Shown here: positions 41,379-64,000 of the stretch, piece by piece
Position numbering within the stretch: the stretch's first letter is position 1
Layout: every line of letters begins with the position of its first letter
From: a virus
Lineage: Duplodnaviria > Caudoviricetes
Virus record (IMG/VR): IMGVR_UViG_3300029288_004137
Span: 1-64,000 of that record
DNA: 64,000 bases
Direction: 5' to 3' (one strand)
The notes under the pieces: generated by a model
What the model was told of the DNA's origin: nothing
What the model saw: the letters and a program-made list of their open reading frames with translations, nothing else
Database searches by the model: none
Position numbers and translations under genes: made by a program

Positions 41379-41387
41379 AAAAAAATC

Positions 41388-41416
41388 TTGACTTTTTCCC
41401 AAAATAATGATATTCT
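41388..41416 (+). promoter_or_regulatory. sigma70 promoter for the vWA gene and ankyrin array
   Basis: TTGACT-17-TATTCT. Confidence 0.65.
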
Positions 41417-41445
41417 ATTAACAGACAAACAAAAAAAGTGTAAAA

Positions 41446-45274: not shown

Positions 45275-45335
45275 TCTAAACAATCTTCAATAAATAAATT
45301 TTATATCAAATGCTTAATCTTAGAAAGGTTATATA

Positions 45336-45596: not shown

Positions 45597-45660
45597 AAAG
45601 AATTAATTTTTAAACTTAATTCTTTTTATGTTAAATGCTTGATCTTAGAAAGGTTATATA

Positions 45661-47850: not shown

Positions 47851-48184
47851 TGCAGTTTATAATAATGATCTTCAACAAGTTAAATGTCTTGTTGAAAATG
47901 GTGTTAATATTCATGTTGACAATGATATATCTTTAAGACATTCAGCACGACATGGTTATATTGATATTGTAAAATATCTTGTTGAGCATGGTGCTAATAT
48001 TCATACCGATAATGATGAGCCTTTATATTTTGCAGTATATTACAATCATTTTGATATTATCAAATATTTAATTTCTTTATATTCAATATCAGAATTAAAA
48101 GAATTAATTTTTAAATTTGATTCTTTTTATGTTAAATTCTTAATCTTAGAAAGGTTATATAATGAATCTTATAGATGCAGTTAA
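47837..48184 (+). CDS. ankyrin cassette
   Basis: About two repeats plus tail. Confidence 0.9.
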   Translation: MSLIDAVYNNDLQQVKCLVENGVNIHVDNDISLRHSARHGYIDIVKYLVEHGANIHTDNDEPLYFAVYYNHFDIIKYLISLYSISELKELIFKFDSFYVKFLILERLYNESYRCS

Positions 48185-48689
48185 TAACAATGATCTTCAA
48201 CAAATTAAATGTCTGGCTGAAAATGGTGCTGATATTCATTGTGAAAATGATTATGCTTTAAGAAGTGCAGCATATCTTGGACATCTTGATATTGTTAAAT
48301 ATCTGATTGAACATGGCGCTAATATTCACGTTCAAGATGAACTTCCTTTAAGATTTGCAGCATGTAATAATTATTTTGATATGGTTAAATATCTGGTTGA
48401 GCATAACGCTAATATTCACGTTCTTGATGATTATCCTTTACATTGGACAACAAAAAATGGATATTTTGATATTACTAAATATCTGATTGAACATGGTGCT
48501 AATATTTATGCTGAAAATGATAAAGCTTTAAAATGGGCAGCAGAATTTGGACATTTTGATATTGCTAAATATTTAATCTCTTGTTATAAAGAATCAGAAT
48601 TAAAAAAATTGTTTTCTAAAACTGATAGTTTCTATGTTAAATTCTTAATTTTAGAAAGGTTATATAATGAATCTCATAGATGCAGTTGA
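48162..48689 (+). CDS. ankyrin cassette
   Basis: About four repeats plus tail. Confidence 0.9.
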   Translation: MNLIDAVNNNDLQQIKCLAENGADIHCENDYALRSAAYLGHLDIVKYLIEHGANIHVQDELPLRFAACNNYFDMVKYLVEHNANIHVLDDYPLHWTTKNGYFDITKYLIEHGANIYAENDKALKWAAEFGHFDIAKYLISCYKESELKKLFSKTDSFYVKFLILERLYNESHRCS

Positions 48690-49014
48690 TAATAATGATC
48701 TTCAACAAGTTAAATGTTTGGTTGAAAATGATGCTGATATTCATGTTTATTATGAAGAACCTTTACGATTGGCAGTATATAATAATTATTTTGATATTGT
48801 TAAATATCTGGTTGAGCACGGCGCTAATATTCGTGCCAGTTGTGATTGGCCATTAAAATGGGCGTTTCAGTATGGTTATTTTAATATTGTTAAATATTTG
48901 ATTTCTTGTTATAAAAAATTTGAATTAAAAGAATTGTTTTCTGAAATCAATAGTTTTTATATTAAATACTTAATATTAGAAAGGTTATATAATGAATCTT
49001 TATGTTGCAATTAA
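48667..49014 (+). CDS. ankyrin cassette
   Basis: About two repeats plus tail. Confidence 0.9.
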   Translation: MNLIDAVDNNDLQQVKCLVENDADIHVYYEEPLRLAVYNNYFDIVKYLVEHGANIRASCDWPLKWAFQYGYFNIVKYLISCYKKFELKELFSEINSFYIKYLILERLYNESLCCN

Positions 49015-49333
49015 AAAAAACGATCTTCAAAATGTTAAAAAATATCTTAAAGAAGAAAATGAAAATAATTATAATTTAATTCTACGATATGCAATATTAT
49101 ATGGTAATCTTGGTATTATTAAATATCTGATTGAAAATGGTGCCAATATTCATACTAGTATTGATTATCCTTTAAGACATGCAGCAAAACGTGGTTATTT
49201 TGATGTTGTTAAATATTTGATTTCTTGTTATTCCGATATAGAATTAAAAACATTATTATTTGAAGTTGATAACTTCTATGTTAAATTCTTAATTTTAGAA
49301 TTTTTTCAGAAAAAATTTTCAAAAAATATTTGA
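48992..49333 (+). CDS. ankyrin cassette (last of array)
   Basis: About two repeats; tail diverges after LILE and the AAAGG SD is lost. Confidence 0.88.
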   Translation: MNLYVAIKKNDLQNVKKYLKEENENNYNLILRYAILYGNLGIIKYLIENGANIHTSIDYPLRHAAKRGYFDVVKYLISCYSDIELKTLLFEVDNFYVKFLILEFFQKKFSKNI

Positions 49334-49387: not shown

Positions 49388-49627
49388 TGCAAAATACGTG
49401 CCAACCGTCTAGGTGTACCTAGTACCGGGGGGGTGTCTCATTATACCACATTGCTTTTCACTTGTCAAGAAAAATCGACATGGCATAGTTATTGCATATT
49501 GCTTTTTATTGTCATTGTTCCTTCACTGTTTATGCTCTAAGCATACCATACCTCGAAATGATTGTCAAGAAAAATCGACATGGCATGGTGATTGCATACT
49601 GAAGATGTATATGCAATCACCGTGCCA
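49388..49627. promoter_or_regulatory. four sigma54 -24/-12 consensus boxes
   Basis: 49388-49403(-) TGGCACGTATTTTGCA; 49481-49496(+) TGGCATAGTTATTGCA; 49581-49596(+) TGGCATGGTGATTGCA; 49612-49627(-) TGGCACGGTGATTGCA. Confidence 0.75.
49440..49468 (-). promoter_or_regulatory. perfect sigma70 promoter firing toward the end of the ankyrin array
   Basis: TTGACA-17-TATAAT with TGn extension. Confidence 0.8.
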
Positions 49628-49632
49628 ATCAT

Positions 49633-49962
49633 TTACGCATTCAATCGCTTATTGATAAGCGTATTGATATCATTTACAAAGGTATCTAATTCCTCTTTGA
49701 TATTATCAAAGAGCTCTTCAATCCTTTCCAGTTCTTCGTTTGCTTCTCTGATTTCACAGGAAGCAAAGTCAATCAATTCCAATGTCGCAGGATCATCATT
49801 CAATATCTTTTCTCGAAGCTCTTCGCATACTTCCTCTTTATCTTCTTCAAGCTTCTCGACATAAGCACATTGTTCGTCAACCTTTTTGGCAAGGCAATCT
49901 CTTTCGTTGGTAAGCTGATTGATTCTTTCCATTGCGGATTCAAGTGTAAAGGTCTTTTTCAT
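49633..49962 (-). CDS. acidic coiled-coil protein
   Basis: ORF with promoter at 49992-50020 and GAGGG SD. Confidence 0.75.
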   Translation of the reverse strand: MKKTFTLESAMERINQLTNERDCLAKKVDEQCAYVEKLEEDKEEVCEELREKILNDDPATLELIDFASCEIREANEELERIEELFDNIKEELDTFVNDINTLINKRLNA

Positions 49963-50044
49963 TGCTTTGTTCCCTCACTGTTTATGCTCTAAGCATACCA
50001 TACCTCGAAACGATTGTCAAGAAAAAAACAACTGGAAATCTAAT

Positions 50045-50335
50045 TCTATTACCTTTCTTCCGGTGATAGAGAAAAAGCATCATGCTTCTTAATTCTATTT
50101 ATATGTTAACTCCTTGATATTATTCAATTCACATTTTATTGTATCACTTTTCTCTAGTGAAGAGAAAAGAATCATGCTTTTTAAAATCTATTTGTATGTT
50201 AACTCCTTGATACTATTCAATTCACATTTTTTGGTATACTTTCTTTCCAGTGAAGAGAAAGAGGTATGAATTGAATATCATGTAAGTATTGTTAACACTA
50301 TGATAACATTCAATTCATACTTTTTGGTATACTTT
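50045..50335. repeat. three 93-bp tandem units, each with a hairpin and an IHF-like site
   Basis: Minus-strand TATCAAGGAGTTA at 50107 and 50200; TATCATAGTGTTA at 50293. Confidence 0.75.
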
Positions 50336-50375
50336 TTCTTATATAAAGCGCAATCATCTTAAGCATTAAGTTTTT

Positions 50376-50899
50376 AACTGTTTCTTTTCAAACCGGCTTA
50401 TCTCGTATATGATTCATTGTATCACCGTTAAATTAATTGTTTTTAATACAAAGATGATATATTCAATATAACAAAAATTGTTCAGGACCATCTCTAATTG
50501 AATTCATTGTTTTATCGCCTTCAATTGCATTTACGGAAGTTTAAAAGGCACCTGATATAATTCTGTTATAAAGCGCCTATCAAATACAATCATCATTCTT
50601 ACGTACAAGTTTAACAAGTCATGACAATTGTTAATTGTTGTATAGAACAATACTTCATTCTATTTTATCGTCAAGAAAACAGCATTGTATTTGATAGACT
50701 TATTCAATGTATTTTATAACCAATCACCTTCCTTTCAAAGAGAAAACATAAAATCATATCTTGTTTCCATTGCTTATAATAGACCATTCCACTCAAGGCC
50801 CAATGAAATCTATTGCGTCAGCTCTTGGTCAGGCTAGTTTATTTTAACGCGCTACAAGACTTTGACTTTGCTTATGTTTCTTTGTTAAAAAAAACAGTT
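50376..50899 (-). ncRNA. putative large multibranched ncRNA
   Basis: No ORF of 60 aa or more; nested stems 50376-50388/50887-50899 and 50577-50590/50684-50697. Confidence 0.4.
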
Positions 50900-50926
50900 G
50901 ACAAACAGAATCAAATGTGGTAAAAT
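50898..50926 (+). promoter_or_regulatory. sigma70 promoter with no downstream plus-strand gene
   Basis: TTGACA-17-TAAAAT with TGn extension. Confidence 0.6.
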
Positions 50927-51085
50927 CGGATTAAATCCGATTTTTTTCTGTTATAAACCCGAAGTTATGCCATAAAATGATTCTATTTTTGTAACCATGT
51001 TAAATCATGGTACAATTTGATTGAAACATTTGGAACATTTCAATTTTATTCATAATTTAAAAGAGCGAGGGATTTACTTAATTGC

Positions 51086-51340
51086 TTAACGAGCAATAGT
51101 CGTGAGTTTAGCATTTTCGGTGCTACGGTTTTCTTCGAGTACAGAGAGATAATCGTTCAAGAAGGCGATTTCTTTTTCGATTCTTGATTTCAGAAGGGAA
51201 AGGGTATCTTTTTTGGATACATCGTTAGAGATAGAGATATGGAAAAGTATGTTTGCCAGATCTTTTTCTTTTTTTTCAATCTGGGAGATAGTCATGTTCA
51301 ATTCTTTGAAGAAGAGATTGACTTTCGTATTCTTTTTCAT
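51086..51340 (-). CDS. hypothetical protein
   Basis: Own promoter and SD. Confidence 0.65.
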   Translation of the reverse strand: MKKNTKVNLFFKELNMTISQIEKKEKDLANILFHISISNDVSKKDTLSLLKSRIEKEIAFLNDYLSVLEENRSTENAKLTTIAR

Positions 51341-51414
51341 GGTATGTTCCCTTTTCAGGTGTTGTTCCCTAACTCTCTATTATATACTCATCATAGCACA
51401 GGTTGAATCAAGAG

Positions 51415-51630
51415 TCAAGCTTTTTCTGAAGGAGAGCAAGAAGCAATATGTTTGACCAGAAATTTGACGGTTTCAAGATTGCTTTCATCATCAGAGACAC
51501 AAGCGCCATGTTTGAGTAGCAATTTGACGGTTTCAAGATTGCTTTCATCATCAGAGACATGAACATCAGCGCCATGTTTGAGTAGCAATTTGACAGATTC
51601 AAGATTGCTCGTATTCTTATTCTTTCTCAT
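51415..51630 (-). pseudogene. degenerate ankyrin gene with internal duplications
   Basis: SNLE.VKLLLKHGA repeated. Confidence 0.6.
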
Positions 51631-51922
51631 GGTGTGTTTTCCTTTTTAAGTGTTGTTTTATTCTTTAACTCTTTATATATTTTCATCATAATAGCACGGA
51701 TTGGATCAAGAGTCAAGGCTTTTCTTATATCTATTGATGGAAAAGAAGAGACCTACTGTTATGAAGAAGAATACTATTGACGTGGGAAAGAATTCCTTTT
51801 TTTTCCTAACCTTTCATATATTCATCATAGCACGGATTGGATCAAGAGTCAAGGCTTTTTTTCCATCAAAAAGAAGAGACATGTCATTATTATAAAGAAT
51901 AGTACTATTAACATGGAGAGTA

Positions 51923-52186
51923 TCACAAAGGACGCCTAAGATTATTGTCAGAAAAAGGGGTAGAGACTTTCATTGAGAAATCGAGTACAATAGATTCGGA
52001 TATAGGAAGATCTTTATCTTTACGAATACCCGTCAAATGTTGACAAAAAGAAGAATAGACTGTATTGATATAGAGTTTATTTACATCCTCGTCTTGATGA
52101 TCTTTAACGATACAAACTCTATTTATTAATCCACAAACAGGGCAAGTAACAAGATTAAGATCAAACATTTCGATATTTTTAAACAT
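51923..52186 (-). CDS. CPxC zinc-binding hypothetical
   Basis: CPVC..CQH. Confidence 0.6.
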   Translation of the reverse strand: MFKNIEMFDLNLVTCPVCGLINRVCIVKDHQDEDVNKLYINTVYSSFCQHLTGIRKDKDLPISESIVLDFSMKVSTPFSDNNLRRPL

Positions 52187-52357
52187 TGTTATTATTTTCC
52201 TTTTATTTAATTATTAAAAGTGAAACAATTTACTAAGGAACCATATAACTCCAAAAACTTCAAGGATACATTGAAAAACTTCAATACCTTTCATTTTATT
52301 TATTTGTGATCTTATTTCTTTTCTTCCTTTCATATATTCATCATAGCACAGATTGAA

Positions 52358-52615
52358 TCAAGAGTCAAGTTCTTTTTTTGACAAAAGAGCAAAAAAGTGA
52401 TTATTGTAGATATATTTGTATCTGAAGGGAGAAGGTCTATTTATTTCTTTTTTATTCTTTTCTTCGATTAGATAATCATTAATATAGTGAATGATTGTCA
52501 TAATTGAAGAGAATAGAGCAATAATGAGAAGGAACAATGTTTCGATTGAATTGAACATTTTCTTTTCTTTCATAGGAGAAATACAAGAGACAATATAATC
52601 CAAAACAAGAAACAT
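52358..52615 (-). CDS. small membrane protein
   Basis: Hydrophobic helix; start uncertain. Confidence 0.45.
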   Translation of the reverse strand: MFLVLDYIVSCISPMKEKKMFNSIETLFLLIIALFSSIMTIIHYINDYLIEEKNKKEINRPSPFRYKYIYNNHFFALLSKKELDS

Positions 52616-52676
52616 GCAAAGAGCATTAGAATGATATCTACAATCAAAGGATTCTTTTTAATTTCTTTCATATTCT

Positions 52677-52922
52677 TCAATCATCCTTTGTTTTGAACAA
52701 AGGGTTTTTTACAATAACAGGTTTTACATTATTTATGTTCAGAATGATTTTAAAAGAGAATGTTCCTATTTTATGTTCTGAACATGAAGTAGAAAAGTTT
52801 TCGAAATGTTTACAAGCATCAATTTTAAGTGGACGGCTCCGTCCATGATCTTCTTCATGGAATTCGGTTATTTCGTGACATATAGGACATTCTGCTACCC
52901 AAGCTAAGCATGTTCTTTCCAT
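52677..52922 (-). CDS. ECPIC family paralog A
   Basis: W..ECPIC..EFHE..C.HFE..FSFKIIL. Confidence 0.7.
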   Translation of the reverse strand: MERTCLAWVAECPICHEITEFHEEDHGRSRPLKIDACKHFENFSTSCSEHKIGTFSFKIILNINNVKPVIVKNPLFKTKDD

Positions 52923-52970
52923 TTTATATATCCTTTTTCATCCATATTGTTTATATTGTTTATATATATC

Positions 52971-53258
52971 TTAATTCTTGTGTATAGAAAGATATGAACA
53001 ATAGGAGATACCACTATAATCAGTCCAGAATTCAAATTGATTTAATTCAATTTGATTTTCAAGGTAACAATATATTGCTTGGTTTTTTGCAAAGGGAATG
53101 AACATACCTCCGTTAAAAAAAGATAAGGAAGCAATATTATCTATTTCTATTTTTCCACTATCTACCTCATTATTATCTCTATCTACTGAGTCTATAGAAA
53201 TGATGGCTTTATTATTTTTATTATTTTCTTTATATTCTATTTTAAGATGAATTCCCAT
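52971..53258 (-). CDS. IEYK/LNQF family paralog
   Basis: IEYKENN..LNQF.F. Confidence 0.7.
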   Translation of the reverse strand: MGIHLKIEYKENNKNNKAIISIDSVDRDNNEVDSGKIEIDNIASLSFFNGGMFIPFAKNQAIYCYLENQIELNQFEFWTDYSGISYCSYLSIHKN

Positions 53259-53272
53259 TATATTTCTTTCTC

Positions 53273-53500
53273 TTATATTGTTATTGTTTTAAAATAACCT
53301 TTTTTATTGATTTTTAAAATTATTTTAAAAGAGAATTCTCCCTTTTTTCTATCTAAAGAAGCGGTTTCAAAGTGTTCACAAACGGATATTTTTCGGGGGA
53401 CACTTTGACCATCATTTGTTTCAACTTCATGGAATTCGATTATTTTACCGCATATAGGACATTCTGTATCCCAACCAAAGCATACTGTATAATTTTCCAT
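53273..53500 (-). CDS. ECPIC family paralog B
   Basis: Same motifs as 52677. Confidence 0.7.
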   Translation of the reverse strand: MENYTVCFGWDTECPICGKIIEFHEVETNDGQSVPRKISVCEHFETASLDRKKGEFSFKIILKINKKGYFKTITI

Positions 53501-53576
53501 TTTCTTTTTCTTTCTTTTTCAATCGTTCATGCTTAAAGCATATCATAATTTGAGCATAAAGTCAAGAAAAAAATCA

Positions 53577-53867
53577 TCAAAGATCATCGAGGTCATTACG
53601 AAATATATTGAATACTCCGTGATAAGAAGAGAAATCCAAGGGCAATATAGAAAAAGTGAATTGATTCAATTCCTTTTTAGTAAAAAGGGTAAAAAGAATT
53701 ATTTGAAAAGGTACAAGATTGATTGAAGTATCCTTTGAATGATAACAAACGTGCATAAAATCAAATTTTTGTTTAATTTCAATTGATTCACAATTTACAG
53801 AAACGATAATTGTTTGTCTATCTTTATATTCTATTGAAAGATAGATAGGACTATTATTGTTATTCAT
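53577..53867 (-). CDS. IEYK/LNQF family paralog (close to 56153)
   Basis: SKDTSINLVPFQ..ELNQFTFS..RNDLDDL. Confidence 0.7.
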   Translation of the reverse strand: MNNNNSPIYLSIEYKDRQTIIVSVNCESIEIKQKFDFMHVCYHSKDTSINLVPFQIILFTLFTKKELNQFTFSILPLDFSSYHGVFNIFRNDLDDL

Positions 53868-53868
53868 T

Positions 53869-54135
53869 TTATTTTCTATACCTTTTAATAAAAAGCATAA
53901 TAGATTGAAGAGTATCAAGCATGGCTGAGAATTGAAATTGATTTAATTGATCTTTATTATCAAGATCGATATATATTTTTTGTGTTTCTACAAGAGTAAT
54001 AAACGTATCTCCGTCACAAAAGACAAGGGCAGAAACATTGTTTATTTCTGTTTTTTCATCATTTATGAAAATGACAGCTTTGTTATTTTCTTTATATTCT
54101 ATTCTAAATTTAATTTGAAATATTCCCGTTTTCAT
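53869..54135 (-). CDS. IEYK/LNQF family paralog
   Basis: IEYKENNKA..LNQFQF. Confidence 0.7.
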   Translation of the reverse strand: MKTGIFQIKFRIEYKENNKAVIFINDEKTEINNVSALVFCDGDTFITLVETQKIYIDLDNKDQLNQFQFSAMLDTLQSIMLFIKRYRK

Positions 54136-54437
54136 TTTATTTTCTTTCTTTTAATCGTTCATGCTCTAAGCATAACACGCTTTGAGCATAAAGTCAAGAA
54201 AAAAGAATATATCGAATGGATAGACTTAGGATCTATCATCTCTTGACCTTATCGATCTAGATCAAGTGTTTTTACCCTTAAACTACATTCGATATAATAA
54301 CTGATAGATCACATTAGTTGTTTCTTTTTTCTCTTCTTCCATCATATCATAATCATGCTTTAAAGCATGATATGATTTAACTAATCGATCACATTAGTTG
54401 TTTCTTTTTCCTTCTTCATGCTCTAAGCATGATATGA

Positions 54438-54767
54438 TTATTTGGTTGGTTTGTCATTATTGGACATGGAAACGAAAATTTCTTTTGTCTCTATAAACCT
54501 TGAATTGAATTCATTTTTTTCTTTATCTATCACAATGCCCTTGAAATGATTACAAGTTTTGTCGCCTTCATGCCCCATGACATTGAAAACATGATTCATA
54601 TTTCCATTTAAATCAAGAAATCTTTTTACTCTGAGAAGAAGAACAATTTTCTTTTCACATACCGGACATTTGGCTACATACCTTTCAATCTCTATTTCAT
54701 CATGATAGTGATTTGGTATTTCATCGTCAAATTTAAAAAGCACTCTAGCATTCTTCTTGGTATCCAT
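54438..54767 (-). CDS. CPVC protein, tandem duplicate 1
   Basis: MDTKKNA..CPVCEK..C.HFK. Confidence 0.75.
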   Translation of the reverse strand: MDTKKNARVLFKFDDEIPNHYHDEIEIERYVAKCPVCEKKIVLLLRVKRFLDLNGNMNHVFNVMGHEGDKTCNHFKGIVIDKEKNEFNSRFIETKEIFVSMSNNDKPTK

Positions 54768-54880
54768 TTTATATTCCTTTTTTTATGTTTTCTCAATCGT
54801 TCATGCTCTAAGCATAACATAACATGATTATTTAGTTGGTTTGTCATTATTGGACATGGAAACGAAAATTTCTTTTGTCT

Positions 54881-55159
54881 CTATATAAACTTTGATTCGA
54901 ATCCGTTTCTTTCTTTATTTATCACAATGCTCTTGAAATGGTTACAAAACCTATTGCCTTCATGTCCTATGACATTGAAAACATTGTTTTCATTTCCATT
55001 TATATCAAGAAATCTTTTTGCTCTGAGAAGAAGAACAATTCTCTTTTCACATACCGGACATTTGTCTACATACCTTTCAATTTCCATTCCATCCTGATAG
55101 AAATTTGGTCTTTCATCGTCAAATTTAAAAAACACTTTAGCATTCTTCTTGGTATCCAT
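54881..55159 (-). CDS. CPVC protein, tandem duplicate 2 (truncated by GAG>TAG)
   Basis: Close paralog of 54438; downstream DNA still matches. Confidence 0.7.
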   Translation of the reverse strand: MDTKKNAKVFFKFDDERPNFYQDGMEIERYVDKCPVCEKRIVLLLRAKRFLDINGNENNVFNVIGHEGNRFCNHFKSIVINKERNGFESKFI

Positions 55160-55226
55160 TTTATATATCTTTTTTTTGTTTTCTCAATCGTTCATGCTCA
55201 AAGCATAACACGATTTTTTTGGTTTG

Positions 55227-55559
55227 TCAAGGATTATTTTCAGTAAAAAAGTCAACTAAAAAAGTAACATTTTTCCAGAAATGCTCTGCTGATTCCATTG
55301 CTTTCTCAATGGCTTTTTTACCCACGGGATTCATTGAATGAACATTCCACTTAAACCGTAGAATTTTTCCATAAAAAGCACGATATTCAATTTCCTTCGC
55401 AAGATCATATCCTGTTTTTTCATTCATTCCAAGATCATGATCAAAAGAAATCTCAGATATATTGTTATTATCCATTAAATCAATTGCTTCTTTAACGGAT
55501 CTTGCAATTGTCCAAGAAGAATCAGGTGGGTTTCTTATATCATCAAGAAAAATTTTCAT
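55227..55559 (-). CDS. cyclic-phosphate-processing receiver-like domain protein
   Basis: KIFLDDIR, ISFDHDLG..TGYD, VHSMNPVG. Confidence 0.75.
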   Translation of the reverse strand: MKIFLDDIRNPPDSSWTIARSVKEAIDLMDNNNISEISFDHDLGMNEKTGYDLAKEIEYRAFYGKILRFKWNVHSMNPVGKKAIEKAMESAEHFWKNVTFLVDFFTENNP

Positions 55560-55637
55560 GTTTTTTTCAATCCGTTCATGTTTATGCTCTAAGCATAGCA
55601 TGATTTGAAGGCAATGTCAAGGAAAAAACGAATGGAA

Positions 55638-56015
55638 TTAAATTTCCCTGCAAGCGTATAAATCTGCCTTTTCAGAATAACACCCATTGCTTGTTCCATA
55701 CCATCGAATAGTAACAGATCCTTTTATGGTTCTGATATTATAAAAAGCCCACGTTTCACTTATATCGTCATTACCAAAATTTTCAGTGCAGTAAGCATCG
55801 AGAATCTCAGTGTTTTCAAGGTCCGAAAGATCTCCACATATATCTTCAATAGATACATCTTCACAACAATCTTGATCGTGATAAAGAATATATCCAGAAT
55901 TTGAATCTTTTAACTGAAAAACAATGGAGTTTATAAAATATTTATTTTTAAAAACCTTGGAAAAAGTTTTTCCTATCAATTCTTTAAACTCTACAGATTT
56001 ATTTTCAGCGTACAT
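55638..56015 (-). CDS. conserved phage protein (HDQDCCEDV..RWYGTSNG.YSE)
   Basis: Recognisable motif family. Confidence 0.75.
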   Translation of the reverse strand: MYAENKSVEFKELIGKTFSKVFKNKYFINSIVFQLKDSNSGYILYHDQDCCEDVSIEDICGDLSDLENTEILDAYCTENFGNDDISETWAFYNIRTIKGSVTIRWYGTSNGCYSEKADLYACREI

Positions 56016-56152
56016 TTTTATATCTCCTTCAATTTTTAATAAGAGAAGCAATAAAGTTCTTGAAATTTAATTCTTCTTTTTTTCTCTCTTCAATCAATCG
56101 TTCATGCTCCAAGCATAACATGATTTGAAGGCAATGTCAAGAGAAAAGATCA

Positions 56153-56452
56153 TCAAAGATCATCTAGATCATTACGAATTATATTGAATACTCCATTCTG
56201 GAAATGGAATCTCAAGAAGGGCAACATACTAAAAGTAAATTGATTCAATTCCTTTTCACTGAAAAGGGTAAACCGGATTGTTTGAAAAGGTACGAGATTG
56301 ATCGAAGTATCCTTTGAACAATAGGAAACATACATAAACTCAAATTCTTGTTTTACTTCAATTGATTGTTCGTTTACGGAAACGATAACCGTTTGTTTGT
56401 CTTTAAATTGAATTTTGAGATCAATATACTTTATTTCAGTATTATTATTCAT
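56153..56452 (-). CDS. IEYK/LNQF family paralog
   Basis: Paralog of 53577. Confidence 0.7.
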   Translation of the reverse strand: MNNNTEIKYIDLKIQFKDKQTVIVSVNEQSIEVKQEFEFMYVSYCSKDTSINLVPFQTIRFTLFSEKELNQFTFSMLPFLRFHFQNGVFNIIRNDLDDL

Positions 56453-56561
56453 TTTATTTTATGTACCTTTTTTCATGTTCTTCTTTAATCGTTCATGCTC
56501 TAAGCATAGCACAATTCGAGTGCAATATCAAGGAAAAAGTGAATGATTTATATTTCCTTTT

Positions 56562-57698
56562 TTATTGTGCTTTGAAGTTAAAGACTGGTTTCATAATGAA
56601 TTCGATATCTACAGTATCTTTGATAGAATCAATTATTCTTTGAGAATCTTTATATGCCATAGGGCTTTCATCGAGTGTATCTTTTGATATACACTTTGAC
56701 CATACATTTTCCATTGTCTTTTTAAAGGTATCCAAAGACAATGTTTTTTTGGCTTTGGATCTTGCGAGGATTCTTCCTGCTCCATGAGGAGCTGAATAAT
56801 TCCATTCTATATTTTCTTTTCCTTTTCCAATAATAATCCCATCTCTCATATTCAATGGGATTATTAAGTTTTGTCCTTTATAAGCAGATATGGCACCTTT
56901 CCTGATAATTGCTATATCTTTTTGGAATTCGATATAATTGTGGATAGATTCTATTTTAGTTCTAATTCCTTTTTGATTAAAGAAATCAATTAAAATCTTT
57001 TCTGCAATCAGTGCTCTATTAAGTTTAGCATATGCTTGAGCAATGATCATATCATCGAAGTATGCTTGTGCTTCTTTTCCTGTTAAATACTCAAGATTTG
57101 AAACACAAGGATAATTTTTAATTTCTTTGGCAATTGCTTGATGGAAATTAGCAATTCTAAGTCCAAAGTTTCTTGATCCGGTATGGATTGTAAGCCACAA
57201 TCTATCTTGATCATCTTTATCTATTTCAATAAAATGATTTCCACCTCCAAGTGTCCCCAAAGAGCACAAAACATTTTCAATGTTTTGTTCGGTACGACAA
57301 GAAATCTTTTTGATATCAGAATCAAGATAAAAATCTAATACTTCTTTAGGATTAGAATGTTTATTGAATCCTGAAGGAACGTTTTCAATAAGAAAATTAT
57401 GAAAACGCTCAAAATCTATTTCTTTCTTATCATTAATTAAATAAGAAGATACACCGCAACCAATGTCAACCCCCACAATATTCGGGATTATAATTGGTTT
57501 GAGTATGTTAATTATTGAAGTAAACCCAATACAAGATCCACTTCCTGAATGACAATCAGGCATGATTGAAATCTTGCTATCCTTAAAAACAGGATGATTT
57601 ATAAATGTTGATATTTGTTTTGAAGTTTCTTCTTCAAGATCTGAATAATCTTCTAACATAACATCTGCATTTGTATATTTCCCTTCAATTTTTAACAT
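56562..57698 (-). CDS. rtcB: RtcB 3'-phosphate RNA ligase
   Basis: MPDCH, VGVDIGCG, GTLGGGNHFIE, HTGSR, HNY, RKGA, SAPHGAGR, DESP.AYK. Confidence 0.95.
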   Translation of the reverse strand: MLKIEGKYTNADVMLEDYSDLEEETSKQISTFINHPVFKDSKISIMPDCHSGSGSCIGFTSIINILKPIIIPNIVGVDIGCGVSSYLINDKKEIDFERFHNFLIENVPSGFNKHSNPKEVLDFYLDSDIKKISCRTEQNIENVLCSLGTLGGGNHFIEIDKDDQDRLWLTIHTGSRNFGLRIANFHQAIAKEIKNYPCVSNLEYLTGKEAQAYFDDMIIAQAYAKLNRALIAEKILIDFFNQKGIRTKIESIHNYIEFQKDIAIIRKGAISAYKGQNLIIPLNMRDGIIIGKGKENIEWNYSAPHGAGRILARSKAKKTLSLDTFKKTMENVWSKCISKDTLDESPMAYKDSQRIIDSIKDTVDIEFIMKPVFNFKAQ

Positions 57699-57740
57699 TT
57701 TATATTTTTCTTTTTCCTTTGGATTATAATTGTTTTTTTC

Positions 57741-57931
57741 AAGTTAAAAATAGAATTCAAGGATAATCACATGTATTTATTAACGATTTTCATCTTTTTT
57801 CACACTCATATAAGATTTGAAAAAGTATCAACTTCAGAAAACAATTTTTTTAATTCTATATCAGAATAATAAGGAATAAAAATGTAAATCTTATATCTGC
57901 AAGGATTATCCTTGAATTCTATTTTTAACTT
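57741..57931 (-). ncRNA. long-stem structured RNA A (28-bp perfect IR) carrying ankyrin-tail sequence in a loop
   Basis: Arms 57741-57768/57904-57931; inner stem 57808-57818/57886-57896; homologous to 63597-63866; strand inferred from the homolog. Confidence 0.65.
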
Positions 57932-57981
57932 TTCAAAGAACAAATAACAATATTATTGATTTGTTTCTTTTCAACGAAAAA

Positions 57982-58341
57982 TTAATATTAACAAGAGGTT
58001 TTTACTAAGTATAAACAAGTTCAGTTAAAAAGACAGCTCGATCAAATCTTTAAGATTTGAACCTTTTAACAAGAGACTAATATTGTTTAAACGTCACTTG
58101 AAAAGAGAATGATAAATTTCCTCTTTCAAAGAAAAGAAATTGTTTTGTCTTTTAGGTAAATTATTTATACCATTATATTTTAAAACTTCCGGCTGTTAAA
58201 ACATATTATAACAAAGAGAGATTTATCAAAATATATTGAAAGTTATAAAATTGTATAAATCTTTAATAAAATATATCAATAAACAATTTGATTATATTTT
58301 CTACTCTTTGTTTTTTAGTAAAAACCTCTTGCTAATATTAA
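57982..58341 (-). ncRNA. long-stem multibranched RNA B (27-bp IR)
   Basis: Arms 57982-58008/58315-58341 with a G.U pair on the minus strand; several inner hairpins. Confidence 0.6.
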
Positions 58342-58535
58342 CTTCTCAAATAACAAATACAAGATTTTTCTTCTTCTTTTTCTTCTTCTTCTTCTATTTC
58401 GCTCATTAATTGATCAATTTCATATTCATTATCTGTAATTTCAGTAGTAAGACGTGAAATTTCTTCTTCAATTCTGGAATTTCTTGCTTCCAAAATCTCC
58501 AATTTTATTGTAAGCTTAATAATAGAATCTTTCAT
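58338..58535 (-). CDS. acidic coiled-coil protein
   Basis: Own promoter and SD. Confidence 0.65.
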   Translation of the reverse strand: MKDSIIKLTIKLEILEARNSRIEEEISRLTTEITDNEYEIDQLMSEIEEEEEKEEEKSCICYLRS

Positions 58536-58628
58536 TTTATAAACCTTTCTTTTTTATGTTTTCTCAATCGTTCATGCTCTAAGCATAGCACACTTAAAAC
58601 ATGAAGTCAAGAGAAAAAGCACTATGCA

Positions 58629-58907
58629 TTATATTTTTTTATAGTCAAGAGAAAGGAAAAAATTAATTGGCAATGTGATTGTATTAAATGATATATTGAA
58701 AGTATTTTCCATATGCTCTATTATATTTTCCAGCATATCATTAACTGAAATTTCAGGAATATCAGCATTATTTATCCGATCTATATCTGGATAATCACCG
58801 CGAAAAATTTCACACAACTCTATTGATCCATCATTTACATTAGCTTTAATACAAATGGATATTCCATTAGTCATCTGAATAGTCGTTTTCATCGAAAAAA
58901 CTTGCAT
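58629..58907 (-). CDS. triplet paralog 3
   Basis: IELCE..GD..PDI..EHM...F..ITLPI.FF. Confidence 0.75.
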   Translation of the reverse strand: MQVFSMKTTIQMTNGISICIKANVNDGSIELCEIFRGDYPDIDRINNADIPEISVNDMLENIIEHMENTFNISFNTITLPINFFLSLDYKKI

Positions 58908-58944
58908 TTGTTATTTTCCTTCTTTTATCTTTTTTTTTGTTGTG

Positions 58945-59262
58945 TTATGATGGATTTATTGATATATATTCATAATCCATTCGAGGTATAACATTAATAA
59001 GAAAAAAATCAATTGGCAATGTGATTGTTTCAATTGAAACATCGAAATTGAGTTTCATATGTTCTTTGATATTATTCAATAGATCATAAATTGTAAATCC
59101 AGTAAGATTAACATTGTTTAACCAATTGATATCTGGAGAAGCAAGATCACCATGAACAACTTCACACAATTCTATTGTGTTGTCCCTTGTATTAACTATA
59201 ACATTAATTTTAATTTCACTATTTACTCGAATAGTCATTTTTATTGAAGAAATTTGTTGCAT
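58945..59262 (-). CDS. triplet paralog 2
   Basis: Same motifs. Confidence 0.75.
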   Translation of the reverse strand: MQQISSIKMTIRVNSEIKINVIVNTRDNTIELCEVVHGDLASPDINWLNNVNLTGFTIYDLLNNIKEHMKLNFDVSIETITLPIDFFLINVIPRMDYEYISINPS

Positions 59263-59324
59263 TTATTATTTCTCTTCTTTTTTTATCTTTTTTTTTCGTT
59301 GTGTTATGATGGATTTAATATATA

Positions 59325-59612
59325 TTATTCATGATCCATTCGAGGTACAACATTAACAATAAAAAAACCAATTGGCAATATGATTTTTTCAATTGAAACA
59401 TCGAAATTGAGTTTCATATGTTCTTTGATATTATTCAATAGATCATAAATTGTAATTCCAATATCAGCATTTAACCAACTGATATCTGGAGAACCAAGAT
59501 CACCACGAACAACTTCACACAATTCTATTGAATTGTCCCTTGCATTAGCTATAACATTAATTTCAATTTCACTATTTACTCGAATAGTCATTTTCATCGA
59601 AGAAACTTGCAT
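59325..59612 (-). CDS. triplet paralog 1
   Basis: Same motifs. Confidence 0.75.
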   Translation of the reverse strand: MQVSSMKMTIRVNSEIEINVIANARDNSIELCEVVRGDLGSPDISWLNADIGITIYDLLNNIKEHMKLNFDVSIEKIILPIGFFIVNVVPRMDHE

Positions 59613-59640
59613 TTGTTATTTTCCTTCTTTATCTTTTTAA

Positions 59641-59895
59641 TTATTCTGGCATGATAGCTTTTAGAATTTGATCTGTCAAAACATCAATAACTTCTTCGCA
59701 TTTGTCTCTTTTATCGCTAAGAACACGAATTTTTTCTTTCATAGCAATTATTTCATTATCAAAGAGGAACATTTGTGTTTTATAAGATTTTACTCTAGTG
59801 AGCAATCCTAGAGATTGATCTTTTTCCTCTCGTGTAAGATCAATTTTCAAAACTTTCGACATGGATTCATCATTTTCTTGTATAAAATTTTCCAT
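59641..59895 (-). CDS. hypothetical protein
   Basis: ORF with SD. Confidence 0.65.
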   Translation of the reverse strand: MENFIQENDESMSKVLKIDLTREEKDQSLGLLTRVKSYKTQMFLFDNEIIAMKEKIRVLSDKRDKCEEVIDVLTDQILKAIMPE

Positions 59896-59918
59896 TTCTT
59901 TTTCCTTTGGTGGTGAAT

Positions 59919-60311
59919 TTAATTAAAACAATTATCAGGATCAAAAGAATAACTTCTATCATATTCATTCGGCGAATGAATAATCAATACTGTTTCTTTA
60001 TGTCCAAAGATAAATTGATTTCTCATTTCCCATCTGAGAGAATTAAGATTGTTTTTATCTCTTACCTCAAAAGAGATCCCATTGATTTTATCAGATAAAT
60101 CAAATACTTGCATTGTCTTTTCATTTGGATCTTCTTCATTTGGAGAAGGAAAAACAAAATGAATAAAAAGACTTGAGATATCTTCGTCAATAGGAATAGA
60201 AACTTTTACCAAAGAATCACTATAATTATCCACACGGAAATGAATAATAAACAATTTATTCATTTCTTTTGCATAGGTAATTACGAATTGCGGTGAATCA
60301 ATCATTTCCAT
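59919..60311 (-). CDS. hypothetical protein
   Basis: ORF with SD. Confidence 0.65.
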   Translation of the reverse strand: MEMIDSPQFVITYAKEMNKLFIIHFRVDNYSDSLVKVSIPIDEDISSLFIHFVFPSPNEEDPNEKTMQVFDLSDKINGISFEVRDKNNLNSLRWEMRNQFIFGHKETVLIIHSPNEYDRSYSFDPDNCFN

Positions 60312-60326
60312 TTCTTTGTCCTATTG

Positions 60327-60620
60327 TCAATTCAAATTGTAATTCTTTTTCAAAAGAGTAGAAAGCAGGTTACAATTCGTTAGTTCTCTATCAGAGAAAC
60401 TCTTGATTTTACGAATACAATCCAAAGAATCATTGAAAAGTTTATTGCAAAGATAGGAATCAAAATTCTTATCTTTGGTTACATCATTTTTCTTCAGAAG
60501 AAAAAGAAGTCTATCTGACTCACGCTTAGCAGTGAAAAGATCAAAGCTCAATTTCTTGATTTTATTGAAAGAATCATCATACAACTTCTTGCAAAGGTAG
60601 GAATCAAAATTCTTTTTCAT
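60327..60620 (-). CDS. hypothetical with internal duplication (KNFDSYLC.KL..DS x2)
   Basis: Own promoter; start moved. Confidence 0.65.
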   Translation of the reverse strand: MKKNFDSYLCKKLYDDSFNKIKKLSFDLFTAKRESDRLLFLLKKNDVTKDKNFDSYLCNKLFNDSLDCIRKIKSFSDRELTNCNLLSTLLKKNYNLN

Positions 60621-60689
60621 TTTATAGACCTTTTTTTTATGTTTTCTCAATCGTTCATGCTCTAAGCATAGCACGCTTTAAGCACAAAG

Positions 60690-60893
60690 TCAAGGAAAAA
60701 GTTTTGAATTTATTTCATCGCAATTATAATCTAAAAGATTTTCAATGCGATGATTTCTTTCTTTATACCCCCAGATTTTATTTGAAATTTCTTCCATTCT
60801 TTTTTCCAAAATAAAAATTTGTTCTCTATTTCGAATTTTTTCTTCAATAAGAAGTTCATTTTCATCTCTTATTTCTTCATAACTTCTTCTCAT
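60690..60893 (-). CDS. coiled-coil hypothetical
   Basis: GAGGGG SD. Confidence 0.6.
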   Translation of the reverse strand: MRRSYEEIRDENELLIEEKIRNREQIFILEKRMEEISNKIWGYKERNHRIENLLDYNCDEINSKLFP

Positions 60894-60911
60894 AATAAAA
60901 ACCCCTCTTTT

Positions 60912-61463
60912 TTAAAAAGAAAACAATACTGGATCTATCTTATCAGATAGTATCTCAAATAATTTCTTTGTTCTTTCGCAATCAGATGAAGCACAATGTG
61001 CTTCACCTTTGAATTGAATATTATACTTTTCACAAAGAAAATCTAGTTTTGTATTTGATTCTCCGCTATCCTTTGCCATTTCTTTTGTATCAAAGAAATA
61101 CGGAAAATTTATATTTAAATTATTTGATTTAAATAATTTATCAATAAATTCCAAATCAAATATCAGGTTTTGACCTACAAGAATATCTGATTCTTCAATC
61201 ATATCCTTAATTATATGAGATACGGATTCAAATGATTTAGCTGTTTTCTCCCATTCTTCTTTCGAATAATGATTCATTTCAAGAGCTTTCGGTGAGGCTG
61301 TTTCAATATGAGATGGAATGAATTTTACTTCAAATTTATCTAATTGATAAAGCTTTGCATTTTGTTCATTTGAAAGAACATAACGAATCATTGCCAATTG
61401 AATGATTTCATTGTCTTTTAGCACTAATCCAGTTGTTTCTGTATCAAGAAATGTAAGGATCAT
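60912..61463 (-). CDS. DEDDh 3'-5' exonuclease (DnaQ-like)
   Basis: LDTETTGL, GQNLIFD, DT, AHCASSD. Confidence 0.9.
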   Translation of the reverse strand: MILTFLDTETTGLVLKDNEIIQLAMIRYVLSNEQNAKLYQLDKFEVKFIPSHIETASPKALEMNHYSKEEWEKTAKSFESVSHIIKDMIEESDILVGQNLIFDLEFIDKLFKSNNLNINFPYFFDTKEMAKDSGESNTKLDFLCEKYNIQFKGEAHCASSDCERTKKLFEILSDKIDPVLFSF

Positions 61464-61866
61464 TTTTATTTTTATTCCAAATGATAAGATGACTTTCAAG
61501 AGGAGAACTGATTTCCTCAGAAATTTTAATACTATCAAATATTTCTTTTGAAACATGAAGAGTAAAATATTGTCCTTTCTGCAAAGGAAGAGAAATTCTT
61601 ATTATAGCTAAATTATCTTCTCTTTCTTTTTCAATACAAATAGATACAAATTTATATGTTACTATTGGAGAACATGGTGAAAATTTAGCACAATGCTCAC
61701 TATTTACAATAATAAATATTTCATCCAAATTACAGTTTTCTTGTTTACATCTTTCAATAAAAATTTCATAATCTTCGTTATCATCAATTTTTTTTGAAAA
61801 TATGTCTTTCAAAAAAAATGATTCTTTGCGAGGATTAAAAGTACATTGAGTTAGCATTTTATTCAT
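61444..61866 (-). CDS. hypothetical protein
   Basis: ORF. Confidence 0.55.
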   Translation of the reverse strand: MNKMLTQCTFNPRKESFFLKDIFSKKIDDNEDYEIFIERCKQENCNLDEIFIIVNSEHCAKFSPCSPIVTYKFVSICIEKEREDNLAIIRISLPLQKGQYFTLHVSKEIFDSIKISEEISSPLESHLIIWNKNKNDPYIS

Positions 61867-61891
61867 TCCAAATGATAATAACTAAAAATAG

Positions 61892-61964
61892 TACCCTTAC
61901 CAGGAATCGAACCTGGATTGTCAGATTAGAAGTCTGATACTCTTTCCAATTGAGATATAAGGGC
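61892..61964 (-). tRNA. tRNA-Arg(TCT)
   Basis: GCCCTTA/TAAGGGT, TCAGA-CTTCTAA-TCTGA, GGTTCGATTCC. Confidence 0.9.
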
Positions 61965-61967
61965 ACA

Positions 61968-62052
61968 AAATAAAGTTAAGATACGAAGTCCTAAAATGCC
62001 CTACAATTGATTTGTTTTAGGGTTTAGGTAAAAAAATATCTTAACTTTATTT
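61968..62052 (-). ncRNA. short AAAGTTAA-stem element F immediately 5' of tRNA-Arg
   Basis: 16-bp IR AAATAAAGTTAAGATA/TATCTTAACTTTATTT. Confidence 0.45.
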
Positions 62053-62107
62053 CAACGCTTCCAATTTAAATTATGGAAGCGTAGCAGGCATTTATATTTA
62101 TACTATA

Positions 62108-62344
62108 TCAAAAAGATACCATTAACAATTCAATGACTGATTGAACATTGCTTGTTTGACAATCTTCGCAGAAATAATTTCTTGCATCAGTCTCTACTGA
62201 GTCTACAATAGAACCACAATTAGTACAAAATCCATCTGTTATACCATCAAATATCATACTTTGAATGGTATTATAAGAATATTCTGCTTCTTTTCCATTC
62301 TTTGCAATGAGAACCAAATTCCCATTAATACGATGAATAACCAT
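62108..62344 (-). CDS. zinc-ribbon protein
   Basis: GFCTNCG..VETDA..CEDC. Confidence 0.75.
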   Translation of the reverse strand: MVIHRINGNLVLIAKNGKEAEYSYNTIQSMIFDGITDGFCTNCGSIVDSVETDARNYFCEDCQTSNVQSVIELLMVSF

Positions 62345-62370
62345 TTTTATTTCCTTCCTTTTTCAATAAG

Positions 62371-62616
62371 AAAGTTAATATTAGGAAGAGATTTATATCA
62401 AGTATGAATATTAAAGATAAAGGTTTCTTTCTCTCTCAGCTCAAAGAACTTCGCTTTTCTTAAGAATATTTCATACCATCACAATACAAGACGACTAGTA
62501 TTTCCGTTATATTGTGTTCTAACGAAGAATAACATTATTCATATACTGAGATGATACATGATATAACGTATCTTTTCTTGGCTTTTTAATATAAATCTCT
62601 TCCTAATATTAACTTT
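62371..62616 (-). ncRNA. long-stem structured RNA C (28-bp perfect IR) with own promoter
   Basis: Arms 62371-62398/62589-62616; TTGACA-17-TATGAT at 62627-62655. Confidence 0.7.
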
Positions 62617-62691
62617 TCATAGTTCAATCATACCATACTTTTTTTCAAATGTCAAGCTTTATTTTTATCAAGAAAATCACAATGTTAAAAA

Positions 62692-62870
62692 GGATAGAGA
62701 AAAGGGAACAATTAACAATTAGTTTATATTTCAAAATTAAATTTCAACCATCAAGCAATTAATGAAATTGCGGAACGTGGTATCACAGTTTAATTTTGAC
62801 TAATTTCAATATGGGTAATTAATCCATATATCCCTCATTAAAAACGAGAATTGTTCCCCTTTCTCTATCC
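62692..62870 (-). ncRNA. long-stem structured RNA D (22-bp IR) with own promoter
   Basis: G.U pair on the minus strand; TTGACA-17-TATGCT at 62879-62907. Confidence 0.65.
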
Positions 62871-62932
62871 ATAAACTAAGCATATCACGCTTTTTTTCAA
62901 ATGTCAAGAAGAAAAAGCATTGGAAATGTTGT

Positions 62933-63121
62933 TCAGAATGTTGTATTCAAAAAACGAATTGTTTGTTCTCTGAGAAGTCCTAGATAAGACTCAAATTCTT
63001 CATCATAAAAACAATTTTCATCAATTGTTTTTTCAAATTCTTTATTTATAATAACATTGAATTGAGAATAAATATTTTCCCATAATTGAGATATAACCTT
63101 TTTTTGAAGATCATTTAACAT
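62933..63121 (-). CDS. hypothetical protein
   Basis: Start moved to MLNDLQ. Confidence 0.55.
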   Translation of the reverse strand: MLNDLQKKVISQLWENIYSQFNVIINKEFEKTIDENCFYDEEFESYLGLLREQTIRFLNTTF

Positions 63122-63248
63122 TCTTCTACATTTCCTCTTTAAGAATATCAAGAATTCCAAGAATTTCTTCTTTTTCTTCAGAAGAATAAGAATCATAATT
63201 ATTGTTTAAATCATCAAGAACATCTTTATAAAATTCAAACATTTATTT

Positions 63249-63470
63249 TCAATCTTCTTCTTTTGATAGGTTAATAATATCAGCCATTTCTTCTTTAAGA
63301 GGGTTTCTCTTTCGCCTTCTTATTTCTTTTCTTTTAAAGCGGACAATACTTCTTTCCACATAATCATCACTTGCTTCTTTTTTGTTAGAATCTTCAAGAT
63401 AAGAATCTTCATCGAATCCAATGGATTCATCAAAAGCATCAGTTATGCGCTTAATCTTCTTCTTTCCCAT
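63249..63470 (-). CDS. hypothetical protein
   Basis: ORF. Confidence 0.6.
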   Translation of the reverse strand: MGKKKIKRITDAFDESIGFDEDSYLEDSNKKEASDDYVERSIVRFKRKEIRRRKRNPLKEEMADIINLSKEED

Positions 63471-63521
63471 TTAGAACATCCCTATCATTTAAACAAGTTA
63501 AACAATTAATAACAATTAAAG

Positions 63522-63593
63522 TGGAGAATAAGGGAATCGAACCCTTAAAATAAGATTGCAAATCTTATATTTTCCCAATTAAATTAATTCCCC
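63522..63593 (-). tRNA. tRNA-Ala(TGC)
   Basis: GGGGAAT/ATTCTCC-A with G3:U70, TAAGA-TTTGCAA-TCTTA. Confidence 0.88.
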
Positions 63594-63596
63594 AAT

Positions 63597-63866
63597 AAGT
63601 TAAAAATAGGATTCAAGAATAAACTTGTATTTATTAGCGATTTCTCCTCAATATCTAAAAAGTGCCCCTTACCACAAAATTGGTATTATTGACTTTTAAT
63701 TGAGAAGAAACCTGGCATATAGTGTGCCCCGTACTCCCATCGTTTTTATCATTAACCGATCTTTTGACAAGAGATGTTCTATACACTTCAAGATTTGAAT
63801 TTAAAATCTACAAAACAATTCAAGTCTTATATCTGCAAGTTTATTCCTGAATCCTATTTTTAACTT
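63597..63866 (-). ncRNA. long-stem structured RNA E (31-bp IR) with own promoter, 5' of tRNA-Ala
   Basis: Arms 63597-63627/63836-63866; TTGACA-17-TATGAT at 63878-63906. Confidence 0.7.
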
Positions 63867-64000
63867 TTCATGGTTCAATCATACCATACTTTTTTTCAAA
63901 TGTCAAGAACAAAATTCTACGGAAGATTCGTGCTTCACATGGAAATTAACTACTATGCCATTCTTAGCATGTTCAATTTCCATGTTAAAAAAATGAGGAC

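Follow-up and report, generated by a model that had tools for sequence, protein, structure and literature searches.

A tailed phage genome (Duplodnaviria; Caudoviricetes) holds, by prediction, at least six small non-coding RNAs among its transfer RNA (tRNA) genes, each closed by a long helix formed between its own ends. These RNAs (units A to F) lie in the interval 57741-63866 of the stretch that we analyzed, which comprises the first 64 kb of the 209,974-base virus record IMGVR_UViG_3300029288_004137 (G+C 27.7 per cent) and is referred to below as the window; positions are those of the window unless marked as genome positions. All genes, tRNAs, and family promoters of this interval are carried by the minus strand. 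The way in which related units have diverged supports selection on helix pairing at the RNA level, and the units are best read as minus-strand, promoter-driven, stem-closed non-coding RNAs. Four of them are preceded by a sequence that resembles the boxA of ribosomal RNA (rRNA) operons, and one carries a piece of ankyrin-gene sequence in its interior.

Closing helices and paralogous pairs

An earlier note, made from the sequence alone, had described six long inverted repeats in this interval, and all six were recovered at the same places by a genome-wide scan (Table 1). The helices of A-E have scores of 26-35, compared to a best score of 19 in two locally shuffled genomes, and the helix of F (18.1) falls inside the shuffle range and is not above chance by score alone. 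The helix of B, first given as 27 base pairs (bp), extends to 34 bp (57975-58348). The observation that mismatches between the arms are G.U when read on the minus strand turned out to be stronger than stated: there are six internal G.U pairs (three in B and one each in C, D, and E) and no internal A.C (one-sided P-value = 1/64; the strictest count, with five Watson-Crick pairs on both sides, retains three sites, P-value = 1/8). Unit G, which is located beyond the window, adds two more G.U pairs.

The sequence GARAAGTTAAWAWTAG does begin A, B, C, and E, as reported. The six units do not, however, constitute one sequence family, since AAGTTAA is missing from D, and comparison with shuffled arms shows no excess similarity of the D and F arms to those of A, B, C, and E (P-values of 0.96 and 0.33, respectively). 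When the 5' arms are compared in register, A and E are identical at 24 of 28 positions, and so are B and C. On this comparison, A, B, C, and E form a sequence family that consists of two pairs (A/E and B/C), and D and F share the layout alone. The helices of A and E differ by three double changes and one wobble change, and those of B and C by four double and three wobble changes (7 double and 4 wobble changes for both pairs), with zero broken pairs in the 28 positions of either comparison. B and C also have a common four-way junction, with the same junction order and linkers and with one compensated change at the base of the last arm. The two motifs that had been noticed in both A and E were found again; they are 14 and 18 nucleotides (nt) long, single-stranded, and flank the helix.

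Multibranched interiors, once attributed to all units, are predicted for B, C, D, and E but not for A and F. Relative to shuffled sequences, the z-scores of interior folding are -3.7 for both B and E, -2.5 for F, -2.1 for C, and -1.1 for D; the interior of A (+0.5) folds no better than its shuffles, and F is predicted to be a single interrupted hairpin.

The transcription signals proposed previously are also in place. Upstream of C, D, and E, sigma70 promoters have their predicted +1 at a distance of 4, 2, and 5 nt from the stem, respectively, and gaps of 3 nt separate E from tRNA-Ala and F from tRNA-Arg. Cleavage by RNase P at the 5' end of tRNA-Arg(UCU) would set the 3' end of F. Unit A (191 nt) ends 42 nt before the start of rtcB, and C ends 26 nt before an open reading frame (ORF) of 78 amino acids (aa) that has a ribosome-binding site. 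About 20 related sigma70 promoters occur at 49468-63906 and beyond the window, and most of their transcripts would begin with ATGAACGATTGA or a variant of it; this type of leader has a loose resemblance to boxA and can also be read as a frame of three codons.

boxA-like sites and ankyrin cargo

The shared motif GARAAG makes up the 3' half of a boxA-like site, not remarked on in the earlier note, whose sequence continues into the helix. We scored such sites by their best match to four published boxA sequences (PMC13753749, PMC7862264, bioRxiv 2021.01.08.426015). A boxA-like 12-mer is found at a constant offset of -11 before A, B, C, and E and before two units beyond the window, G and J. The number of differences from the nearest published boxA is one in A, three in B, two in C, one in E, two in G, and zero in J, and the genome background per position is 8e-5 for at most one difference, 1e-3 for at most two, and 7e-3 for at most three. 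In Priestia megaterium pBM400, the boxA preceding the 23S gene has the same sequence as the 13-mer of A, and the 16S boxA is one base off the site of C.

Two real rRNA operons, those of P. megaterium pBM400 (Bacillota) and Escherichia coli rrnB, served as controls. Both boxA sites of pBM400 run directly into processing helices, the helices of rrnB begin 11-13 nt from the boxA start, and the boxA-to-helix offsets in the two operons are 9-13. The leader-trailer helices of rRNA measure 25-40 bp (PMC10250234), a range that includes A, B, C, and E (28, 34, 31, and 31 bp), with D and F (22 and 19 bp) being shorter. Moreover, the predicted operon (promoter, orf65, boxA, B, boxA, A, rtcB) repeats the two-cassette plan of an rRNA operon. 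The units would work like rRNA packaging, yet they are not an rRNA operon; no Rfam rRNA model matches their cargo, and comparison with the two rRNA operons gave nothing above shuffles. Likenesses to the sarcin-ricin loop and the GTPase center, seen by eye, were dismissed as short chance words.

Both units beyond the window are on the minus strand. Unit G (genome 66106-66362) consists of a promoter, a hairpin, a boxA-like site, a 34-bp helix, and five ankyrin pieces, followed by tRNA-Trp. In unit J (genome 66464-66742), a promoter is followed by a boxA-like 12-mer that, alone in the genome, equals a published boxA, then by two structured segments that are each closed by a stem, and by a U-run; J has no Rfam match.

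Also unremarked before is a match, in the mRNA sense, between the interior of A and the 3' ends of numerous ankyrin genes. This cargo of ~60 nt scores 59 bits against an ankyrin nucleotide profile (the 95th percentile of shuffles is 19) and is identical at 47 of 57 nt to the nearest ankyrin copies, such as 47746-47802 and 49220-49276, in a genome with roughly 26-30 ankyrin-repeat genes. It is mostly unpaired in the predicted ensemble, and an 11-bp helix that may bracket it (57886-57896 with 57808-57818) has a pairing probability of only ~0.26. The five ankyrin pieces of G are in scrambled order, and its design is the same as that of A. In the loop of E equivalent to the cargo of A there is a possible, weak 18-nt remnant of the ankyrin tail (63804-63821; P-value ~0.01 in a position-restricted test only); E as an ankyrin patchwork was rejected as not significant overall (P-value = 0.29). 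Searches of B, C, D, and F against the phage genome, sense and antisense, returned no match, and no antisense target of B-F in this genome rose above shuffles.

Two other accounts of the cargo were discarded. Translation of the open frame in A would lack a ribosome-binding site and have its start buried at the helix foot, and the open frame itself is not significant. A template repeat of a diversity-generating retroelement would call for a reverse transcriptase, of which the genome has none, and the differences in the cargo are of all kinds, not just at template adenines.

Table 1. Positions of the units, their signals, and related genes. Helix lengths are for the minus strand with G.U pairs allowed.
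Feature	Position	Strand	Description
Unit A	57741-57931	-	Closing helix of 28 bp, perfectly paired; interior folds weakly; paralogue of E
Unit B	57975-58348	-	34-bp closing helix (4 G.U), four-way junction; paralogue of C
Unit C	62371-62616	-	31-bp helix (1 G.U), four-way junction; paralogue of B
Unit D	62692-62870	-	22-bp helix (1 G.U), three inner arms, then five U; no AAGTTAA, no boxA
Unit E	63597-63866	-	31-bp helix (1 G.U), structured interior; paralogue of A
Unit F	61966-62054	-	19-bp helix (3 G.U at ends), one interrupted hairpin; no boxA
boxA-like site of A	57931-57942	-	13-mer from 57942
boxA-like site of B	58344-58355	-	3 differences from nearest published boxA; overlaps helix foot
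9-bp hairpin	62055-62082	-	Adjoins F upstream, where rRNA leaders have boxB
Promoter of C	62615-62655	-	Predicted +1 at 62620; boxA-like 12-mer (62626-62615) overlaps -10 to +1 stretch
Promoter of D	62879-62907	-	Predicted +1 at 62872
Promoter of E	63866-63906	-	Predicted +1 at 63871; boxA-like 12-mer (63877-63866) overlaps -10 to +1 stretch
sigma70-type promoter, extended -10	58582-58610	-	Heads predicted operon orf65 - B - A - rtcB
orf65 (65-aa ORF)	58338-58535	-	Stop codon within 5' arm of B
Ankyrin-gene tail fragment in A	57820-57881	-	Sense of ankyrin mRNAs; no stop in 19 codons
Ankyrin gene array	35264-49333	+	C-terminal tail motif is source or target of A cargo
tRNA-Arg(UCU)	61891-61964	-	Downstream of F
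tRNA-Ala(UGC)	63521-63593	-	3 nt after E
rtcB RNA ligase gene	56562-57698	-	PF01139 (E-value 2e-62); downstream of A in the same predicted transcript
cREC receiver-domain gene	55227-55601		Near rtcB
Rnl1- and Rnl2-type ligase genes	genome 72146-73378 and 74588-75595		

A proposed release route and its alternatives

On balance, we think that host antitermination, RNase III, and RNase P release the units as stem-closed stable RNAs. Release by RNase III, one of the roles suggested earlier, is made plausible by a layout that reproduces the leader-trailer helices of rRNA; a genome search found no phage-encoded RNase III. In A and B, host NusB/S10 would bind boxA and aid the 5' arm in meeting the 3' arm (PMC10250234, PMC4838370), whereas C and E would start at their own +1 and have a full boxA only in their read-through transcripts. 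RNase III would then cut the helix and RNase P would cut at the following tRNA, leaving a stem-closed RNA that would resist exonucleases. The scaffold would have been duplicated (A/E and B/C) and the loops exchanged.

What the released RNAs might do is the weakest part of this model, and we put forward a decoy function, one of the roles listed in the earlier note, only tentatively, as something short of probable. Such decoys would be made in bulk early in infection. The unpaired sense-strand ankyrin sequence of A, like that of G, would titrate away a host factor, RNA-guided or sequence-specific, that targets ankyrin mRNAs, and B, C, D, E, and F would present folded arms to proteins. We read A as a decoy because a stable, abundant, unpaired sense copy of the most conserved ankyrin stretch would bind a guide-loaded or sequence-specific factor directed at the mRNAs of so large a gene family. 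A broader version, which we regard as unlikely, is a modular RNA-display platform in which loops can be exchanged on a scaffold of boxA and helix in the style of rRNA, and sense pieces of ankyrin genes, the most repeated gene family of the phage, serve as target decoys against RNA-guided immunity. The immunity in question would be type III or VI CRISPR, Argonaute, or antisense RNA, and the phage RNA would act as a counter-defense by mimicking the target rather than the guide.

Several observations weigh against release of dedicated stable RNAs and against their decoy role. D and F have no boxA-like site, and the sites of C and E overlap the segment between -10 and +1, so that they would be whole only in read-through transcripts; ~20 other phage promoters also start their transcripts with bases that resemble the first ones of C and E. 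The G.U bias depends on 3-8 sites, and the covariation on two paralogue pairs in a single genome; copying between arms at the DNA level can likewise yield double changes. The interior of D folds better on the plus strand (z-score of -5.0 versus -1.1). The cargo of A is no more central than an ordinary ankyrin copy (mean identity of 41.4/57, rank 14 of 18), and it has no wobble bias for sense or antisense pairing (the changes are mixed), both of which would be expected of a pseudogene remnant. B, C, D, E, and F have no significant ankyrin or other self-derived cargo. Our claim is limited to the sequence of one genome.

The main rival draws on some of the same observations. In it, the helices would serve rtcB, the 78-aa ORF, and the tRNAs in cis, as leaders for processing and stabilization in the manner of the RNase III punctuation of T7 early RNA; the interiors would be largely filler, and that of A a collapsed ankyrin pseudogene. 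All units but D precede a gene or tRNA in the same direction, the cargo of A resembles an ordinary gene copy in an open frame within an unstructured interior, and ankyrin genes are numerous and scattered. Filler, however, would not retain the four-way junction of B and C with its conserved linkers or the 14- and 18-nt single-stranded motifs of A and E; D has its own promoter and U-run, with no downstream gene before the next promoter; and local hairpins would suffice for punctuation. We rate this explanation as somewhat unlikely.

It is less likely again that the RNAs titrate the host rRNA maturation machinery (NusB/S10 via boxA and RNase III via the helices), slowing ribosome synthesis or RNase III-dependent defenses, with the interior being secondary. 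Strong promoters, boxA-like sites, and rRNA-like helices would suit such a role, and in E. coli the over-expression of nut RNA is known to titrate Nus factors (PMC4807359). Titration would leave the conserved interiors and the ankyrin cargo unexplained, as well as the lack of boxA in D and F. Near-perfect helices, moreover, should be cut and turned over and would thus be poor sinks.

Circular forms were also considered. The earlier note had suggested circularization by RtcB, but rtcB adjoins only one unit, and it belongs to a full RNA-repair set (cREC, rtcB, Rnl1, and Rnl2) that is the usual tRNA-repair set of jumbo phages; the role of rtcB is probably tRNA repair. RNase III and RNase P leave 5'-phosphate and 3'-OH ends. 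RtcB joins cyclic or 3'-phosphate ends to 5'-OH (PMC7824862, PMC3400036), and RtcB circles are not supported because it does not join the ends left by the two nucleases. An RtcB circle of the archaeal bulge-helix-bulge type was rejected, as the stems are uninterrupted and the motif is absent. If circles exist, Rnl1 or Rnl2 would be the chemically apt enzymes, and circularization by either one after processing, which is compatible with our preferred model, strikes us as improbable. The helices hold the ends together, and the genome encodes Rnl1- and Rnl2-type ligases, which join 5'-phosphate to 3'-OH (PMC7824862); these ligases and RtcB are nevertheless common tRNA-repair genes of jumbo phages (PMC7824862), and the stems offer no bulge-helix-bulge motif.

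The possibility that the units are elements at the DNA level, whether miniature inverted-repeat transposable elements (MITEs), invertible segments, or template-switching foldbacks, is already largely refuted and very unlikely. Their terminal inverted repeats are near-perfect, TTAA in both arms of A, B, C, and E can be read as a target-site duplication, and another perfect 24-bp repeat (unit H, 26682-27061) has one arm in a gene. Yet neither a matching transposase nor target-site duplications in the flanks, which the earlier note named as signs of MITEs, were found. The genome has no match to tyrosine or serine recombinases, Y1, TnpB, IS110, or DDE_Tnp_1 (six families, with working controls; the piggyBac search had no positive control, and a host-encoded enzyme is possible). 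The interiors differ, the flanks have no direct repeats, the units all face one way behind promoters or boxA, and the G.U bias is on the minus strand. Contigs of the likely source sequencing run cross A, C, D, E, and F, and those of a second study cross C, E, and F, with no differences (no variant or inversion among the matches listed, although contigs drop rare variants).

Two further suggestions, a 6S-like RNA polymerase mimic (A and E) and a retron-like RNA, are dismissed as very improbable: the 191-nt length of A, the conserved single strands that flank the closing helix in A and E, and terminal repeats that recall retron a1/a2 arms are outweighed by the lack of any Rfam 6S or msr match up to an E-value of 5, by E, B, C, and D being branched instead of rods with a central bubble, by the interior of A having no stable helix, and by the absence of a reverse transcriptase (no PF00078 match) from the genome.

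Under our preferred reading of released, stem-closed RNAs, the paralogues with exchanged loops allow scaffold and cargo to be told apart in a natural experiment, and the units suggest a general phage route in which host rRNA antitermination and processing are used to make stable RNAs. Phage tRNA-cluster stable RNAs have, to our knowledge, been without an assigned function for decades. Should A and G prove to be target decoys, they would represent a new class of RNA counter-defense.

Genome setting and comparison with known RNA systems

The ~210-kb phage is T4-like, has a T4-type tail-tube gene and ~23 tRNA genes, and was found in two metagenomes (landfill and groundwater). The non-coding units sit inside its tRNA region, as is expected of T4-type stable RNAs. 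A Joint Genome Institute (JGI) contig is identical to the record across C-F and hence provides no cross-strain changes; a 101-nt tandem duplication (genome ~64022-64223) is single in this otherwise identical contig and is either an assembly artifact or a polymorphism. A weak tRNA prediction at 54210-54293 (32 bits, compared to 50-68 for others) reads either as Ser-AGA or as Tyr with a short intron and is possibly a pseudo-tRNA or a tRNA-like RNA. The tRNA-Leu(UAA) gene (genome 67231-68014) has a 699-nt intron, with no Rfam intron match among the matches listed, and a 150-aa ORF on the opposite strand inside it that, judged by eye, resembles an HNH protein. At 58629-59612 are three unannotated paralogous ORFs in tandem (92-105 aa, spaced by ~350 nt). 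One arm of unit H lies in the 5' untranslated region of a radical SAM gene (26729-27778, plus strand) and the second ~310 nt inside that gene, where the repeat could cut or silence its mRNA. Directly before H (26470-26680) are three tandem copies, ~87 and 71 nt apart, each ending in a GC-rich hairpin, which form either a terminator array or a repeat array.

Searches for homologs were largely negative. The Infernal/Rfam check proposed earlier was run and matched only tRNAs, and transfer-messenger RNA, RNase P RNA, and signal recognition particle RNA have no match in the units. Five DNA patterns searched in viral contigs gave blank or chance-level results, one pattern searched in metagenomes had an unrelated ~95-bp repeat as its best match, and one searched in bacterial genomes had three matches, none at an rRNA gene. 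In blastn searches, 50,697 phage records returned only tRNA matches and chance-level hits, and plasmids and E. coli returned blank or chance-level results. Neighboring proteins and the ankyrin tail, used as queries, found only this phage; tail-tube relatives are at most 59 per cent identical and located on short contigs, and ankyrin-bearing viral loci were rejected as relatives. With no homolog in the collections searched, the family rests on one phage. Three segments of unrelated viral contigs (3437-3620, 4375-4558, and 807-993) have 17-20-bp inverted repeats that begin like the arms of B and C and enclose AT-rich interiors; they resemble invertible promoter segments and have no further likeness to the units. 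In the open-access literature, we found no paper on boxA-led, helix-closed phage RNAs with gene-derived loops.

Among known systems, rRNA operon packaging (PMC10250234, PMC13753749, PMC4838370) shares with the phage units a boxA-like site that runs into a 28-34-bp helix looping out a cargo RNA, tandem boxA-led cassettes (B then A, like 16S then 23S), and a tRNA directly after the helix (E and F). It differs in that the phage cargo is 135-306 nt long and is not rRNA, in the near-perfect pairing of the phage helices, in the predicted start of C and E at their own +1, and in the lack of boxA in D and F. RNA anti-CRISPRs (Racrs; PMC10651486) are likewise small RNAs of phages, and mimicry is the means by which they are proposed to disable RNA-guided immunity, but they copy the CRISPR repeat, whereas A copies a piece of the phage's own mRNA, the would-be target. 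The only CRISPR-repeat match in the units is to CRISPR-DR47, on the plus strand in B (23 bits against a threshold of 39, E-value of 2.2). Y RNAs (YrlA, RF02553) similarly have their ends paired in a long helix and are found near tRNAs and rtcB, but no Ro60 was found in the phage genome, and the YrlA model matches no unit, its weak hit lying on tRNA genes.

RNA C and RNA D of phage T4 lie in a tRNA cluster and are released by host tRNA-processing enzymes. These stable RNAs, of unknown function (PMC9697503), are non-coding RNAs of a T4-like phage, as are the units described here. The phage units are larger, have very long closing helices, are boxA-led and paralogous, and have early-type promoters; one has gene-derived cargo, and outside tRNAs there is no sequence match to cultured phages. 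The units are best read as a kind of phage tRNA-cluster stable RNA, closest to T4 RNA C and RNA D in kind though without sequence homology to them.

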